64,000 nucleotides of DNA from NCBI RefSeq assembly GCF_041248615.1, contig NZ_CP158426.1. One strand, 5' to 3'. The notes beneath the pieces are model-generated. The model made no database searches. It was not told the DNA's origin and saw only the letters and a program-made list of their open reading frames with translations. Shown here in pieces: positions 285 to 30,522 of the stretch. A program made the position numbers and the translations under genes. The DNA comes from Escherichia coli (GTDB taxonomy: Bacteria; Pseudomonadota; Gammaproteobacteria; Enterobacterales; Enterobacteriaceae). Every line of letters begins with the position of its first letter. The stretch's first letter is position 1.

Positions 285-3029
285 TCAGAGTGCCTGAGCC
301 AGGTAAGTATCCAGCCATTCATGGGGCTGCATTCCTTCCCGGTAGAGAGAGTCGAAGATTTCCAGGTTGTCGGCGCTGCCGCTCATGACTTTTGTGTACC
401 TGCCGATCCCGGAAAGATCGAGCGTCACACGTGCAGCAAAACGCTTTATGTCGCCACGTCTAAATTGATTTTTTACCACTACGTACTGACGGGCCTGAGG
501 ATCCAGGGCTTTCACGACGTCGAACACTTCCGGCTCAAACTTCATTCCGTCGACATAGTGTTCCCTGTCAGCACTGGGGTTGGCTGCCAGGATCTGCGTG
601 CCGCACTGCTCAATCACGGCAGGCGCAATTTCATCCCTGATGATCTCCGCCGGGGACTGTGTTCCAACAACCAGCATCCCGTTTAGCTTGCGGATAGTTT
701 TCAGTCGGTTATAGGCGAAATCCTTAAAAACCGGATCCCGTAGCCATTTCCAGAACTCATCCATGAAGATAACCAGTCGACGTCCGTCGAGTAGGCTGGT
801 AATGCGGTACAGCAGATAAAAGGAGATCGGTGCGCAGATATTCGTATCGTCAAGAAACTCTGTGCCGTCAATGCCAAAGTTATCGCAGCGACTGATATCG
901 AAGGTGTCTGATGCGTTATCAAACACCCAGCCAAACTCGCCACCCTGCGCCCACTGTGACAGGCGAATACTCAGGCCATTCTCCTGGGCTTCTCGGGTCG
1001 CAGGCTCCGGAAGATTCTCCAGTAAACGGGTGATCCCATGAATACGGTACTGTGGTTCATTACCGATCACCGCCAGTATGGCATCATTTAGACGTCGTTC
1101 ATTGCGGGGCGTGATGGTCGCACCGTTACGCGTACACAGCAGTTTCATCAGCTGACTGATAAAACTGATATTGCGTTTCGTGGGCGATAGCGAAAATGGG
1201 TTCCACCCGGTGGGCTCTCCATGTGTAATACGGTAATAACGGCCTTGCAATGCCCGGATATTCATTTCAGCGCCACGATCCTTATCCAGATAAACGGTTG
1301 TCAGTCGTTTGGTTTTTGCGTCGGGAGAAAAACTCTCCGTACGGCTATATTTCTGCTGCATGTTTTCCAGAAACGTCATGAGCATGGTTTTACCCGAACC
1401 GTTGGTACCGAGAATGCAGGTACTGGCTGGATTCTTCTCGTTGAATTCATCCTTATCCGCCAGCGTATTGTGAAGGTTCAGATAGTATCCATCCCCTGAT
1501 GGGGCACGCAGTAAGGCCATCGCATCCCCCCAGGGCGCATTATCGCGCTTGCCGGGATAGAAATTGTGTAGCGAAGCCAGCTCGACAAAATTCTGACTGC
1601 TCAGCTCACCCTTGCGGGGCCGCAAATGATAATTGCCAGGCAGTTGCGCCATATACCCGGCTGAAAGAGAAAGCGCGGCGGGAACCGATATAATGCCGAG
1701 GTTGTTCAGGGCATTGCTGATTTCGCTGGTATCGGCTACCAGACTATCCAGCGTCTGGGAAAACACCATGATGGAAAAATGGTGTTTTCCATACGCAATT
1801 TTTCCCGATGTCAGCAGGTCAAGCGCCACATCCAGATCCAGCCGCTGAGACACCGCATCATCATCTGAACTCATTAACAGACGTCGGGTGCGTTTGATGG
1901 CCTTCCGGGCTTCTTCCCGTGACATGCAGGTGTAGGACTGTGTGATGACATAATCACAGGGGGCATAAAGCAGAGAATCCATCATTCCAGTTGCTGTTTC
2001 TTCAGGGAACTCTTTAACTTCCAGACCCCGGAAATACTGGGTGCCGCCGGTATGGTTTATCTGTCCAGACTCCCCGGAGAAAAACAGCGCCGCCGATCCC
2101 ATGACGGAATATGCAGGAGCACGGGTGACGCGGATCCTGCGCCATTGGTGCGTCAAGAGATACTCGTAAAAGGATAACTGGGAGGAGAATACCGCCTGTT
2201 CTTCGCTGAAAGTACCAAGAGAGTGTGCGGCGTAGCGTGACAGAGCGGTATCGAGGGTACCTTTAATTTCCAGCATCCCCTGCAACACACCGTCAAGCTC
2301 TTTCAGTTTCTGGCCGTCTTTCATACGCCGGTGTCCGGCTTTTTCCAGACTGGCAAAAGGGCGGTAGCAGGCAGTCAGGAACAAGCGGTTACGGCGAAAC
2401 GGGTTAGCCTCCAGCGAGGCATAATACAGACGGCTGACTTCATCAGCGTAAGGGTTGCCGGATACCTTATGTAGCGAATCGGTAAATGGCTCCCTTACGT
2501 TATGGATATAGAAGGTGACCGGCATCCCCTCGAAAGAGCGGATAATTCCGTGCAACTGGTTACGGTCAATATTGAGCGTTTCTTCTGATTCACAATCGAA
2601 CGGAGTGCCCGTCAGTTCCCAGGTACAGTAGAGGTCACTATTGGGTGAGCGGACGACATGTTGATGAATATGCGATGAATACGGAATGTATTTCCTGAGC
2701 GTGGCACTCTGATTCAATTTCATGACGTTGAGAAACTCCGTGATATCAACAGCATCATGCTCAATGGGCATAAATGCTGTTGCGCCAAATAGACGGTTTG
2801 CCGCAGGTTTTCCTCTTGCCCTGAGCCAGACGGCTATCAGGCTGAACCGCATGGGTTCATTCTTGGTAAGCGATTTCATCAGCAGAAATTCAATCGGGAG
2901 TAGGGCGAGGAAAGCGACGGAGGTCCAGACAGCAATGATGATGGTGATACCCGTGACAGCCAGTAGAGGCACCATCGGCACTCCCCATAGTGCCGCCGGA
3001 CGTCTCATTGCCTTAAGCAGCTTTGCCAT
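285..3029 (-). CDS. virB4: VirB3-VirB4 fusion, T4SS ATPase
   Basis: 914-aa ORF; N-terminal membrane segment (VirB3-like), Walker A GTNGSGKT, CagE/TrbE/VirB4-like length and layout. Confidence 0.85.
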   Translation of the reverse strand: MAKLLKAMRRPAALWGVPMVPLLAVTGITIIIAVWTSVAFLALLPIEFLLMKSLTKNEPMRFSLIAVWLRARGKPAANRLFGATAFMPIEHDAVDITEFLNVMKLNQSATLRKYIPYSSHIHQHVVRSPNSDLYCTWELTGTPFDCESEETLNIDRNQLHGIIRSFEGMPVTFYIHNVREPFTDSLHKVSGNPYADEVSRLYYASLEANPFRRNRLFLTACYRPFASLEKAGHRRMKDGQKLKELDGVLQGMLEIKGTLDTALSRYAAHSLGTFSEEQAVFSSQLSFYEYLLTHQWRRIRVTRAPAYSVMGSAALFFSGESGQINHTGGTQYFRGLEVKEFPEETATGMMDSLLYAPCDYVITQSYTCMSREEARKAIKRTRRLLMSSDDDAVSQRLDLDVALDLLTSGKIAYGKHHFSIMVFSQTLDSLVADTSEISNALNNLGIISVPAALSLSAGYMAQLPGNYHLRPRKGELSSQNFVELASLHNFYPGKRDNAPWGDAMALLRAPSGDGYYLNLHNTLADKDEFNEKNPASTCILGTNGSGKTMLMTFLENMQQKYSRTESFSPDAKTKRLTTVYLDKDRGAEMNIRALQGRYYRITHGEPTGWNPFSLSPTKRNISFISQLMKLLCTRNGATITPRNERRLNDAILAVIGNEPQYRIHGITRLLENLPEPATREAQENGLSIRLSQWAQGGEFGWVFDNASDTFDISRCDNFGIDGTEFLDDTNICAPISFYLLYRITSLLDGRRLVIFMDEFWKWLRDPVFKDFAYNRLKTIRKLNGMLVVGTQSPAEIIRDEIAPAVIEQCGTQILAANPSADREHYVDGMKFEPEVFDVVKALDPQARQYVVVKNQFRRGDIKRFAARVTLDLSGIGRYTKVMSGSADNLEIFDSLYREGMQPHEWLDTYLAQAL

Positions 3030-27463: not shown

Positions 27464-27701
27464 CGAGATTAAAGTGCATTAGTTCAGATGTAAATTGACA
27501 TTTTGTGGCACAGGGTAGAGCTAGCGTGGTTGTCCGCTTTGTGCCAAAAGCAGACATTGATAACATTGAGATATGTTAATTTATAGGGAGCAGCTCAAGG
27601 CCCACTGGAACTTCCAGTTTTTGCCCCTGAAACCGTTCCCAATGAGCACTTCCATCTGAAGACTGCGCAGTCTTAGTTTTCGTTGCCTTTAGTTTATCCC
27701 T

Positions 27702-29036
27702 TTATGATACCGATAAAAACTTTGTTGCAATTTCTGCTGCCGTTTTCTCCATGCTGGGATATACAGTGCTTTCGGATATATTAAGCTGCGCCAGCTCTTC
27801 CAGAATTTTATTTTTGTTCGCTATCTCCACTCTGTTAAGAGGAAACTCAGCATCTGTTTCCGGTAAAATGGGATCAAGTCCGAACAGAAGAAAAGCTCCT
27901 GCCTGAGATTGTATGCGTTCATTATTTATTTTAGCCTTAAGGAAAACAACTTTCCTTAAGTCATCAGGAATTATTCTGTTTCTGAAATATGATTTTTCAT
28001 TCTGTATAAGGTCTGCAAGTTTATCCGTGAGTTCAGATAACTCCATATTACCTTTTCTGGAATCAGAGGAGGACAATTTTTCCAACTCTTCGTAAGATAA
28101 AAGTGATAAGTTTGCTATACAGCTCACTGTATCTGAGTCGAAATATTTAATTTTCTTTCTATTTGTTGAAAACGAAATCACCTGTCCGTTTTCATCGGGG
28201 TTCGAACAGCAAGCAAAATATAATGCTATCAGTGGGTTAGATGTAATGTCTAAGAGTCTTGTAGGCAAGCCATAATGCTGCATGCGGACAAGTTTATCAA
28301 TCGTAAATTTATCCTCCTTAAATTCATTTGGTCTTGCGCTGAGTATTTCACGTACTAAATCAGATTCTGAAGCAAGATGCCTGTACGTCCCGTTTTGATT
28401 TTTTCTGTAAAGAGAGGGGACAAGCTCATATGAGCTTTTAGAGTGTCCACGATAAAAGGTAATGAGACCATCACGAAAGTTTTTCTTTATGAAATTAAGA
28501 TAATCTATAATATTCTCGACTACTGGGTATGTTTGTTTTTTTAATTTGATTGTACCTTTCAGTTGGCTATTTTGTTTGTTTAAACCAAGTGATTCCAGAA
28601 CAATATTTAAATCCTTATTTTTTACTGCCCAATGTGTACGACTTAACCCGAAAGATCCTAGCCCTAGGGTTTCTTTATATAATGTCGTTTGGGGATTCGT
28701 TATTTCTCCAAAATTATGATTAATCTTGAAAGAAAATAAAATATCGCCACCATCTTTACGTAAGTTTCTTATTTCCCCAAGTCTGATCCTGATGTACTTG
28801 TTTGTATCATATTCATCATCTTTTGTATAAGTTTCGGTCATGAACAATACTGGTAGCTTGGCGAGTTCTCTTAAGGTATCGGGTCTTATTGGTGTTAATT
28901 TACTGTAAATATCGCTTGGGGTGCCTTCCAGCATGCGGGACATCGAGAATCTTTCCTCGCCTTCTTTAAGCCCAGGGTCCATACACGGCCAGCGGTCAAA
29001 AACGTCCGGTTCTCCGGCCATGATTAAGCTAAACAT
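27702..29036 (-). CDS. FRG-domain protein (candidate anti-phage/abortive-infection moron)
   Basis: 444-aa ORF on the opposite strand to neighbours, in ~1.9 kb AT-rich block; motifs FYRGHS, LVPSLYR, QHYGLPTRLLDITSNPLIALYFA fit the FRG domain as I recall it; palindromic hairpin at its 3' end. Confidence 0.6.
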   Translation of the reverse strand: MFSLIMAGEPDVFDRWPCMDPGLKEGEERFSMSRMLEGTPSDIYSKLTPIRPDTLRELAKLPVLFMTETYTKDDEYDTNKYIRIRLGEIRNLRKDGGDILFSFKINHNFGEITNPQTTLYKETLGLGSFGLSRTHWAVKNKDLNIVLESLGLNKQNSQLKGTIKLKKQTYPVVENIIDYLNFIKKNFRDGLITFYRGHSKSSYELVPSLYRKNQNGTYRHLASESDLVREILSARPNEFKEDKFTIDKLVRMQHYGLPTRLLDITSNPLIALYFACCSNPDENGQVISFSTNRKKIKYFDSDTVSCIANLSLLSYEELEKLSSSDSRKGNMELSELTDKLADLIQNEKSYFRNRIIPDDLRKVVFLKAKINNERIQSQAGAFLLFGLDPILPETDAEFPLNRVEIANKNKILEELAQLNISESTVYPSMEKTAAEIATKFLSVS

Positions 29037-29324
29037 CGCAATCTCCTAAATTTACTTGCTAAAGTCAGTGTACTTTTATCATGTTGCTTCATTGTGTATG
29101 AAAGTAACATTGGTTGTCCATGCTCGTTTGTCTCTCATAATTCACAAATTTGCGAATATTTTTTATAAAAAATTCAAAACAGATAGGTTGACACAATCAA
29201 AATTCACAAAGGGCACCTGCTTCTAATGTGGTTACGGCCCGATCATACGGGCAATGTCTTTCCATTATTGAAAACTCCGGGATCAACCATGATATATGAA
29301 GTCTCTTGCTATCCAGTTAAGTAA

Positions 29325-29615
29325 ATGTCTGCTTCTCGCTCAAAGCGGGCTAGAAGGTTAGCTTGCGTCGGACTTGGCGTATTTAAAGAAGTGCTGGTGG
29401 TGACAGGTTATTATGTTCCATTTCTACAGAACAAAATCACAGAAACTATACCCAATAGTTGTATTGAATCACTGACGAGACATCCTCATATTTATCAGGA
29501 CTGGTGTACGTCCAATACAGGAGGTTGTGGTGCTGGTTCTCAAATGTGCGCTGGCTATTGCTGCTGTAATGGCAATTTATTGCCTTGCTGTTGTTCTTAT
29601 GGATCGCCTTTCTGA
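29325..29615 (+). CDS. Possible small Cys-rich protein (uncertain)
   Basis: 96-aa ORF ending GGCGAGSQMCAGYCCCNGNLLPCCCSYGSPF; no convincing RBS; divergent from the FRG gene. Confidence 0.25.
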   Translation: MSASRSKRARRLACVGLGVFKEVLVVTGYYVPFLQNKITETIPNSCIESLTRHPHIYQDWCTSNTGGCGAGSQMCAGYCCCNGNLLPCCCSYGSPF

Positions 29616-29830
29616 TTGATTTTATATTGGCGAGGTGACGTGAGTTAAGTAGAATTGCTGCGGGTGCTTGAGGCTATCTGCCTCAGGCATGAACACCAAA
29701 GGCAGATAGAGAAAAGCCCCAGTTAACATTACGCGTCCTGCAAGACGCTTAACATTAATCTGAGGCTCAATCTATGAACGGCAAATCTAGGTTAGCCTCT
29801 TACGTGCCGAAAGGCAAGGAGAAGCAGGCT

Positions 29831-29986
29831 ATGAAGCAGCAAAAGGCGATGTTAATCGCCCTGATCGTCATCTGTTTAACCGTCATTGTGACGGCACTGG
29901 TAACGAGGAAAGACCTCTGCGAGGTACGAATCCGAACCGGCCAGACGGAGGTCGCTGTCTTCACAGCTTACGAACCTGAGGAGTAA
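29831..29986 (+). CDS. hokD: Hok/Gef-family type I toxin (HokD-like), with overlapping mok frame from 29774
   Basis: MKQQKAMLIALIVICLTVIVTALVTRKDLCEVRIRTGQTEVAVFTAYEPEE; upstream leader stem-loop CTATCTGCCT...AGGCAGATAG. Confidence 0.85.
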   Translation: MKQQKAMLIALIVICLTVIVTALVTRKDLCEVRIRTGQTEVAVFTAYEPEE

Positions 29987-30129
29987 GAGACCTGGCGGGG
30001 GAGAAATCCCTCGCCACCTCTGATGTGTCAGGCATCCTCAACGCACCCGCACTTAACCCGCTTCGGCGTTTTTTCCGTTGATTAACTCTAGTTATTAGAG
30101 AACCGAACTTTTATTGATGGGGCAGGGAG

Positions 30130-30522
30130 ATGAAGAAACTTGTTTTAGTCGCAGGTGTAATGATTGCAACAGTAATGTTGGGAGGGTGTGCAGCAAAGGT
30201 CGATCCAGCGTTGAAAGCAGAAGCAATGAAGCCACTAACATGTAATGATGAAAAGCAATGTGACTTTTATTGGAAACGAGCGCAATTCTGGTTGGCTAAT
30301 AATTCCTCATGGAAAATTCAAACGGCGACAGACACGCTAATTTCCACTTATAATCCCTCTCCAAATAGTCCATTCCTCGCTTATCAAGTGAGTAAAATGC
30401 CAAATGAAGATGGATCCTCAAGAATTTTCATCAAGCCTTTTTGCGATAATATGTTTGGCTGTCAACCAAACCCCTATCAGGCAGTTGTTTCCTTTAAAAA
30501 CTTCGTTAAAACAGGGCAGTAG
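30130..30522 (+). CDS. Prophage lipoprotein
   Basis: 130-aa ORF with lipobox LGGC after a hydrophobic signal; Cys-containing mature part. Confidence 0.6.
   Translation: MKKLVLVAGVMIATVMLGGCAAKVDPALKAEAMKPLTCNDEKQCDFYWKRAQFWLANNSSWKIQTATDTLISTYNPSPNSPFLAYQVSKMPNEDGSSRIFIKPFCDNMFGCQPNPYQAVVSFKNFVKTGQ

Follow-up and report, generated by a model that had tools for sequence, protein, structure and literature searches.

Between a FRG-domain gene and hok, a 64,000-nucleotide stretch of Escherichia coli DNA (contig NZ_CP158426.1; the whole stretch is termed the window below) contains an open reading frame (ORF) of 96 codons that ends in a dense run of cysteines and lies in a segment (29325-29615) for which the RefSeq annotation is empty. 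This raises the question as to whether the frame encodes a protein, whether the segment acts as an RNA, or whether the frame is open for another reason. The answer reached here, to which a probability of roughly 0.85 is assigned, is that the cysteine-rich ORF is a shadow, i.e., an off-frame image, and that an overlapping ORF of 29 codons is the real coding gene and a member of a hok-linked family. The elements concerned are the following:

29325 to 29615, plus strand: 96-amino-acid cysteine-rich ORF, from ATG 29325 to a stop at 29615; judged not to be a gene, its 3' third being the -1 frame shadow of the small ORF.
29530 to 29619, plus strand: proposed small gene of 29 codons with a GTG start and a TGA stop, product (f)MLVLKCALAIAAVMAIYCLAVVLMDRLSD, recognised by its invariant start, its ratio of nonsynonymous to synonymous change (omega) and its fixed length.
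29519 to 29524, plus strand: Shine-Dalgarno sequence AGGAGG, 5 nt upstream of GTG 29530.

The family to which the small ORF is assigned is undescribed and, in lambdoid prophages of Escherichia, has its place immediately before hok/sok; it occurs as two types, i.e., type 1 (29-30 amino acids), which includes the copy in the window, and type 2 (34 amino acids). The window's ORF, running from GTG 29530 to TGA 29619, reads VLVLKCALAIAAVMAIYCLAVVLMDRLSD and is in the +2 frame relative to the cysteine frame. A program-made ORF list gives it 30 codons by starting at the adjacent GTG 29527; this codon varies among relatives (GTC, ATC, ATT, TAT) and GTG 29530 is invariant, the start being ATG in the copy on the plasmid pWR100 and ATG or GTG in type 2. 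A GGAGG-type Shine-Dalgarno sequence at the same spacing was found in approximately 100 of 112 type-1 loci and in all 121 type-2 loci. Exactly 29 codons are kept in 124 of 130 loci, and the sole length change among orthologues, that of locus L139, is in frame and amounts to exactly one codon. Furthermore, an in-frame stop is located 17-18 codons upstream of the GTG in most loci, without an ATG in between, and the 29-codon ORF is therefore not the tail of a longer protein. An ancestral 97-amino-acid protein combining the N-terminus of the cysteine frame with the hydrophobic C-terminus, as seen in rare database entries such as P0017, was rejected on account of the same stop.

Substitution patterns distinguish the two frames. 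Between the window and pWR100, 17 of 84 nucleotides differ, ten of these differences being synonymous in the small frame (omega 0.16) as opposed to one of the 17 in the cysteine frame (omega 4.6-5.1). Against eight diverged orthologues, whose orthology rests on the flanking hok leader and promoter and not on the ORF, omega in the small frame ranges from 0.07 to 0.55 (0.07-0.40 for the seven with at least 16 differences), with a proportion of synonymous differences (pS) of 0.36-0.53 versus 0.07-0.27 for nonsynonymous differences (pN); the corresponding omega values for the cysteine frame are 0.4-4.6. The variation among close relatives comprises 25 sites, of which 12 are synonymous in the 29-codon frame where 7.6 are expected (P = 0.03), while the cysteine frame has seven against an expected 7.4, which fits neutrality. 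The nonsynonymous changes that do occur in the 29-codon frame are conservative (V/A, A/T, A/V, V/I, M/T, D/E, R/H and L/F).

The 96-codon ORF and its tail are present as an earlier note on this DNA had described them, although the tail, while indeed dense, holds 8 cysteines in 29 residues and not 9 in 28 (the whole ORF holds 11), and the sequence preceding ATG 29325, ccagttaagtaaATG, lacks a Shine-Dalgarno sequence, as that note had also remarked. A 316-bp query of the region matched 2514 of 5426 complete E. coli genomes, 1684 of them at ≥80% coverage and 85-100% identity, and in none of the 1684 does the segment carry an annotated feature. Frame conservation was assessed in an alignment of thirteen diverse copies. 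ATG 29325 sits on a mosaic or homology breakpoint and is missing from many relatives, and the frame is broken by a 1-bp deletion at ~29432-29436 in six of the thirteen copies and by a 14-bp deletion at ~29387-29400 in two. Across 127 further loci the longest ORF in this frame spans 23-102 amino acids, reaching at least 96 in only 23 loci, and the first ATG yields just 23 amino acids in 65 of the 127. Database entries for the ORF, which form a cluster of 62 members, are likewise heterogeneous, with lengths of 47, 71, 72, 78, 96 and 98 amino acids. The cysteines themselves are replaced by Tyr, Arg, Gly or Ser in relatives: the compared stretch holds seven in the window and two in pWR100, the L139 copy has three plus a stop (a stop also interrupts the frame in locus L140), and close relatives have three to nine. 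No family match for this ORF was found in the Pfam, NCBIfam and PHROG libraries.

The abundance of cysteine codons can be traced to the frame beneath. T is the last base of 17 of the 29 codons in the real frame, and where the next codon is GCN or GTN (Ala/Val), as it often is, a reading that begins one base earlier gives TGC or TGT. Random synonymous recoding of the real peptide produced a mean of 2.3 cysteines in the shadow frame, and seven or more in 0.16% of trials; the cluster therefore reflects the codon choice of this copy, and its density exceeds chance because T-ending codons precede the Ala, Val and Leu codons of the helix in the real frame. The cysteine-rich 96-codon frame is a by-product, or reading-frame artefact, of the overlapping 29-codon gene. 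The chance ORF that the earlier note had offered as a fallback is thus half correct, in that the ORF is not real, but it is not pure chance either, being the shadow of an overlapping small gene which that note had missed. Like shadow ORFs over other real genes, it is open only through the compositionally biased real frame beneath; it differs from these in that the real gene is here the shorter one and lacks RefSeq annotation, which is why the shadow looked like the sole candidate.

A profile of 12 variants of the small peptide, compared with 1.84 billion representative proteins, matched 17 proteins with E-values down to 1.7e-15, the more distant forms including MLAALKGFVAILAVVAIYCLVVVLMDRLSD, ...LVLKGALAIAAVAVIYCLVIVLMDRIFE and MLIIKGVLAIVIVVAIYCLVVTLWERLSD. 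Type 1, present in the 1684 complete E. coli genomes mentioned above, also occurs in E. coli B/BL21 (as VLVLKCTLAIVAVMAIYCLVIVLMDHLSD) and in LF82. Type 2, with the sequence MSDDISLAMEGALAV(I/V)AVVGVYCLVVFLMDRLGN, shares 54% identity with type 1 over 28 amino acids (E = 5e-10); it is annotated by the Prokaryotic Genome Annotation Pipeline (PGAP) as hypothetical protein WP_001278450.1. At least 120 IMG/VR contigs and 674 complete E. coli genomes carry it, the latter at a median of three places each. In addition, tblastn revealed an orthologue on the virulence plasmid (pINV) of Shigella and enteroinvasive E. coli, in approximately 135 records. In pWR100 this copy lies ~350 bp upstream of icsP, in a long regulatory region (L137 2900-3200), with the small ORF intact and starting with ATG; on one side it borders the same upstream sequence, on the other the hok promoter followed by ~90 nt of hok leader, while the hok gene itself is gone. 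When a degenerate DNA pattern was applied to one genome each of 100,044 species, it returned only two mis-binned E. coli-like contigs of metagenome-assembled genomes, and the range of the family is essentially Escherichia and Shigella. Neither peptide type has a significant match to a Pfam, NCBIfam or PHROG family. Literature searches with the peptide string and with WP_001278450 gave no match in main texts, a search combining icsP and hok gave nothing relevant, the hokW-sokW paper is silent on the upstream region, and no published description of the family, its link to hok or the pINV copy was found.

Type 2 does, however, correspond to a gene for which translation has been published. It is the novel gene XECs145 of O157:H7 strain Sakai, where it was called with a longer N-terminus and its product was predicted to be located in the inner membrane and to have a single transmembrane helix (Huecker et al. 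2017, PMC5597208, S2 Table). In LB medium, XECs145 showed a transcriptome value of 79.1 reads per kilobase per million (RPKM) and a translatome RPKM of 346.1, corresponding to a ribosome coverage value of 4.35 at a coverage of 0.99; in BHI medium the respective values were 121.3, 150.1, 1.14 and 0.84 (PMC5597208). The translation seen for this homologue is that of uninduced lysogens. XECs145/WP_001278450.1 is a homologue of the window's peptide, occupying the same site upstream of hok in the same region after a DUF977 gene and sharing its single-helix build, but it differs in an 8-residue polar N-terminal extension (MSDDISLA), an ATG start and the tail LMDRLGN (LMDRLSD in the window), and it is annotated in RefSeq whereas the window's type 1 is not. 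Two further observations pertain to the type-2 locus L140. The interval separating the type-2 stop from the hok promoter contains a perfect 20-bp palindrome, GATATGGGAATTCCCATATC (~2996-3015), which is bordered by no T-run and has no counterpart in type-1 loci; it may serve as an operator or form a hairpin at an RNA 3' end. Overlapping the end of a DUF551 gene, immediately before the type-2 gene, is a small hydrophobic ORF of 27 amino acids (2771-2854, MNWPEAFAITGVAMAIAFLVYVICRWG) with AGGAGG 7 nt before its ATG and weak PHROG matches (best E = 0.0065).

The association with hok was defined by means of the following features:

29627 to 29655, plus strand: hok promoter-like site, TTGGCG, 17 nt, TAGAAT; hexamers kept in pWR100, spacer changed.
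29659 to 30051, plus strand: hok mRNA body with 5'-3' long-range pairing of the tac/fbi type and the Sok antisense region inside, based on Rfam and the pairing.
29831 to 29986, plus strand: coding sequence (CDS) of the HokD toxin, called by PGAP on the identical NZ_CP043033; a mok-type extended frame starts at 29774 (ORF 29774-29986).

The stop of the small ORF at 29619 falls 8 nt before the hok -35 hexamer. Rfam identifies a full hok/sok leader at 29662-29836 (sok, RF01794, 111.7 bits), while 29659-29667 is 100% complementary to 30043-30051 (9 nt) and 29668-29685 pairs imperfectly with 30024-30041 (18 nt). The Rfam match and the terminal pairing together place the 5' end of the hok mRNA at ~29657-29662, and the small ORF therefore lies outside the canonical hok/mok/sok unit. 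Where the sequence extends far enough downstream, hok is found at a constant distance behind the ORF in 88 of 100 type-1 and 102 of 109 type-2 loci; one exception, on inspection, has an IS3 insertion separating the two. All diverged members with inspected context and downstream sequence are immediately followed by a HOK_GEF gene, the contig of P0047 being short and stopping at the ORF. The hokD copy of K-12 abuts relE and is without the small ORF. The possibility that the ORF is a degenerate duplicate of hok was rejected, as it does not match PF01848 and could not be aligned convincingly by eye.

Several variations of the hok region were recorded. A group of loci represented by L028, considered as cases of the ORF without hok, was rejected as such, the divergence after 29620 being an IS3 insertion with hok beyond it. 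In this group and in L136 5700-7121 (E. coli E21845/O/A), IS3 is inserted just after the ORF stop (the equivalent of ~29620), cutting off the hok promoter and leaving a shortened Hok-family CDS; this recalls the hok loci of K-12 that have been inactivated by insertion sequences. The mok start region (29774-29986) falls into two sequence classes, AATCTATGAACGGCAAATCTAGG versus CATTCTATGCTACACAAACGTAGG-like, among near-identical hok leaders, the classes switching as a block at ~29767-29790. Moreover, a 44-nt piece (29597-29640), made up of the last seven codons of the ORF and the beginning of the hok promoter, is found again with 95% identity in many prophages, among them those of O157:H7 and O104:H4, that have no hok at that place; in L264 (2501-2544) it lies between QueH and a restriction-modification pair. 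These matches were rejected as further variants of the ORF, as they look like recombination scars or a preferred mosaic joint beside other genes.

Sequences that may direct expression of the small gene were identified upstream of its Shine-Dalgarno sequence:

29464 to 29469, plus strand: candidate -35 hexamer TTGAAT; TTG kept, with an exact 17-nt spacing to CATATT.
29487 to 29492, plus strand: candidate -10 hexamer CATATT, conserved in all lineages including pWR100.

The -35 hexamer occurs as TTGAAT, TTGAAG, TTGAGT or TTGCTG, and the 17-nt spacing is constant in five lineages (including pWR100) whose spacer sequences differ. Conservation of hexamers and spacing over a changing spacer is the pattern expected of a promoter, and TTGAAT-17-CATATT is probably the small gene's own weak sigma-70 promoter, with a predicted transcription start at ~29497-29500. 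The TTGAAT-CATATT motif is missing from type-2 loci and from L139, where plus-strand genes precede the ORF, and read-through from the early operon therefore probably serves as well. No intrinsic terminator was found between the small ORF and hok. The small gene would accordingly be transcribed both from its own weak promoter and by read-through of the rightward early operon, and would be translated from its strong Shine-Dalgarno sequence. A trans-acting small RNA (sRNA) in the flank 29327-29463 was considered and rejected, as this flank shares no direct repeats with the mRNA of the ORF.

For the encoded peptide, AlphaFold2 returns one helix covering residues 2-29 with a mean pLDDT (the model's per-residue confidence score) of 93.5. 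The best 19-residue hydropathy window scores 2.4-3.0 in all family members and 2.70 in the window's 29-residue peptide, which is predicted to form a single transmembrane helix. Positions that are invariant in the type-1 alignment include L9, A10, I11, A13, V14, I17, Y18, C19, L20, S29 and D30, numbered on the 30-residue sequence from GTG 29527 and thus one above the 29-residue product; the family as a whole retains a core (I/V)YCL and a tail LM(D/E)R(L/F). The helix accordingly displays an Ala-x3-Ala-x3-Ala face, the invariant Ile/Val-Tyr-Cys-Leu motif and a short charged tail, MDRLSD.

Other explanations of the segment were weighed against these data. The least credible of them is that the 96-amino-acid ORF is a real metal-binding or secreted, cysteine-knot-like protein, possibly acting with the FRG gene, as the earlier note had suggested: the ORF is open in the window, some GenBank submitters have called it as a hypothetical protein and its cysteine density exceeds that of randomly recoded shadows, but its start lacks a Shine-Dalgarno sequence and is not conserved, indels and stops break the frame, its cysteines are freely replaced, omega is neutral or worse, it matches no family, and the FRG gene lies alongside in only 27 genomes. 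The conservation and synonymous-substitution check which that note had proposed across related prophages went against this frame. A structured RNA or sRNA encoded in the tract 29500-29620, the note's other proposal, is highly improbable. The local dyad symmetry reported for the tract exists in so far as hairpin-like matches are present at 29554-29573 and 29571-29584, but on both strands the predicted folding is matched by that of shuffled sequence (z = -0.61 and -0.97), Rfam gives nothing above threshold inside 29325-29615, only sub-threshold chance matches, and the GGCAATTTATTGCC palindrome is disrupted in relatives by substitutions that are silent in the peptide frame. It is also improbable that nothing is translated and that the segment is kept as DNA or RNA serving hok, i.e., as a promoter element, a read-through leader or a recombination flank, with the ORF being coincidental. 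The 8-nt distance to the hok -35 hexamer, the nearly constant inheritance with hok and the failure of PGAP to call type 1 are in keeping with this idea; however, synonymous sites are free while the peptide is kept, which is the opposite of nucleotide-level constraint, the start switches only between GTG and ATG with the Shine-Dalgarno sequence and its spacing conserved, the sole length change among orthologues is one whole codon, and the type-2 homologue carries strong ribosome footprints.

An alternative that accepts the 29-residue peptide as a product, and which is considered unlikely, is that it represents a type I toxin, i.e., a second membrane-depolarising peptide beside Hok, held in check by an unrecognised antisense or trans-encoded RNA. 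The toxins TisB, DinQ, ZorO, Ibs, Ldr and Fst are peptides of 26-35 amino acids with one hydrophobic helix and a polar or charged end that are often missed by annotation. The small peptide fits the profile of TisB, DinQ, ZorO, Ldr and Fst in its size, hydrophobic helix, polar C-terminal tail and lack of annotation, is a small hydrophobic membrane peptide by length, hydropathy and model confidence, and adjoins a proven type I system, and a promoter-like site is present on the opposite strand (29648 to 29619). This antisense site, however, is not conserved in pWR100, no direct repeat was found through which a divergent sRNA could pair with the mRNA, the freedom of synonymous sites gives no indication of an overlapping antisense gene, and the predicted 5' untranslated region is short (~30 nt) with a weak hairpin masking the Shine-Dalgarno sequence. 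Furthermore, XECs145 is heavily translated in healthy growing cells (ribosome coverage value 4.35 in LB), and loss of hok, or its separation by IS3, has left the ORF undamaged. The small peptide thus differs from the above toxins in that no antitoxin RNA was found, its homologue is translated during growth and no sequence similarity was detected, although a distant or unconventional antitoxin is possible.

As regards the function of the 29-codon gene, the favoured but tentative suggestion is that the product is a non-lethal membrane microprotein of lysogens that modulates Hok or another membrane protein. The peptide would insert into the inner membrane and act through helix-helix contacts, and Hok, as the prime candidate partner, may have its insertion or pore formation modulated in this manner. 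A more specific and rather speculative form of this proposal is that the peptide constitutes a third protein component of the prophage hok/sok system, which binds the transmembrane helix of Hok and sets whether and when pores form; such a component could be an antidote in lysogens or a co-factor at lysis, and would explain why two diverged peptide types are both fixed next to hok. The peptide resembles Hok/Gef proteins (PF01848) in being small, prophage-borne and equipped with a transmembrane helix (N-terminal in Hok), and is encoded on the same strand and adjacent to hok; it differs in having no PF01848 match even at E = 10 and no NCBIfam match, in lacking the periplasmic C-terminal domain of Hok, and in lying upstream of the hok promoter, which sets it apart from mok. 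Regulatory membrane microproteins such as AcrZ, MgtS, PmrR, KdpF and MgrB are single-helix peptides that tune a larger membrane partner. The likeness to these lies in the proposed way of working and is of kind only, as there is no homology, the small peptide is prophage-borne whereas they belong to the chromosomal core, and its partner is a proposed one.

A number of points weigh against the interpretation of the 29-codon ORF as a hok-linked gene. The ORF is short, close relatives offer few substitutions, and the within-group test is modest (P = 0.03). The patterns or profiles by which many of the loci were retrieved were derived from the small frame itself, which biases the counts of intact copies. 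PGAP never calls the type-1 ORF in RefSeq, the published translation evidence covers the type-2 homologue only and not the window's type-1 copy, and the Sakai reads stem from a multi-copy locus, their assignment being shared between copies. With respect to the promoter, one subgroup has TCTCAT in the -35 position and the pair of hexamers scores 8 of 12, just under the scan threshold. Finally, on the functional side, the idea of a membrane modulator with Hok as its partner is drawn from synteny and the shape of the peptide, and the hok promoter is so close (8 nt) that proximity may be all that the tight linkage reflects.

The wider setting of the locus, 27-32 kb of the window, is the early-right region of a Rac/Qin-like lambdoid prophage of E. 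coli. In the identical sequence of strain XDL (NZ_CP043033), PGAP gives the order DUF977, FRG-domain gene (opposite strand), hokD, hypothetical gene, DUF968, RusA, Q and tRNAs. Two features border the segment on its left:

27702 to 29036, minus strand: FRG-domain cargo gene (PF08867, E = 2.6e-22).
29327 to 29463, no strand assigned: conserved non-coding flank forming the right border of a variable cargo slot, with 1- and 14-bp indels in relatives.

Homology to other prophages starts at ~29327 whatever the cargo, and the sequence to the left varies by genome. The diverged lineages and pWR100 lack the flank 29327-29463, their homology beginning at ~29430-29455, and in the two most diverged of the thirteen aligned copies it starts only at ~29450-29487. 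The slot 27470-29326, between the end of DUF977 (~27463) and the start of the conserved segment at 29327, is a cargo hotspot with a sharp right border at ~29327, which in other genomes holds, in either orientation, SIR2, RelA/SpoT-domain, DUF4209, YobI P-loop NTPase, QueH, HigBA, ORF6N/AntA-type or several hypothetical genes, and looks like an anti-phage defence or moron island. The segment and the FRG side occur together in only 27 genomes, as opposed to 1684 for the segment itself. The partnership with the FRG gene that the earlier note had considered for the cysteine-rich ORF is not borne out, given that this gene is swapped for others at the slot; it is one interchangeable cargo gene of many, without a functional tie to the small peptide. 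Just downstream of hok, on the plus strand, an ORF of 130 amino acids (30130-30522) begins with MKKLVLVAGVMIATVMLGGCAAK, a lipoprotein-type signal with a lipobox-like LGGC; it is annotated as hypothetical only (WP_000737636.1) and has no Pfam family.

The locus illustrates that a compositionally odd ORF may be nothing but a shorter real gene read out of frame, in this case one that RefSeq omits in ~1700 complete E. coli genomes and yet annotates in the form of its 34-residue sister. The gene would add a conserved membrane microprotein, translated at least in its sister form, directly upstream of hok/sok, a much-studied toxin-antitoxin locus. Roughly 40% of complete E. coli genomes encode the peptide, as does the Shigella virulence plasmid at a site upstream of icsP, and it was probably overlooked in small-protein surveys of K-12 because the hokD copy of that strain lacks the ORF. 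Should it not interact with Hok, it would represent one more phage microprotein expressed in lysogens; should it do so, a protein layer would be added to a system that has been thought to be controlled by RNA only.

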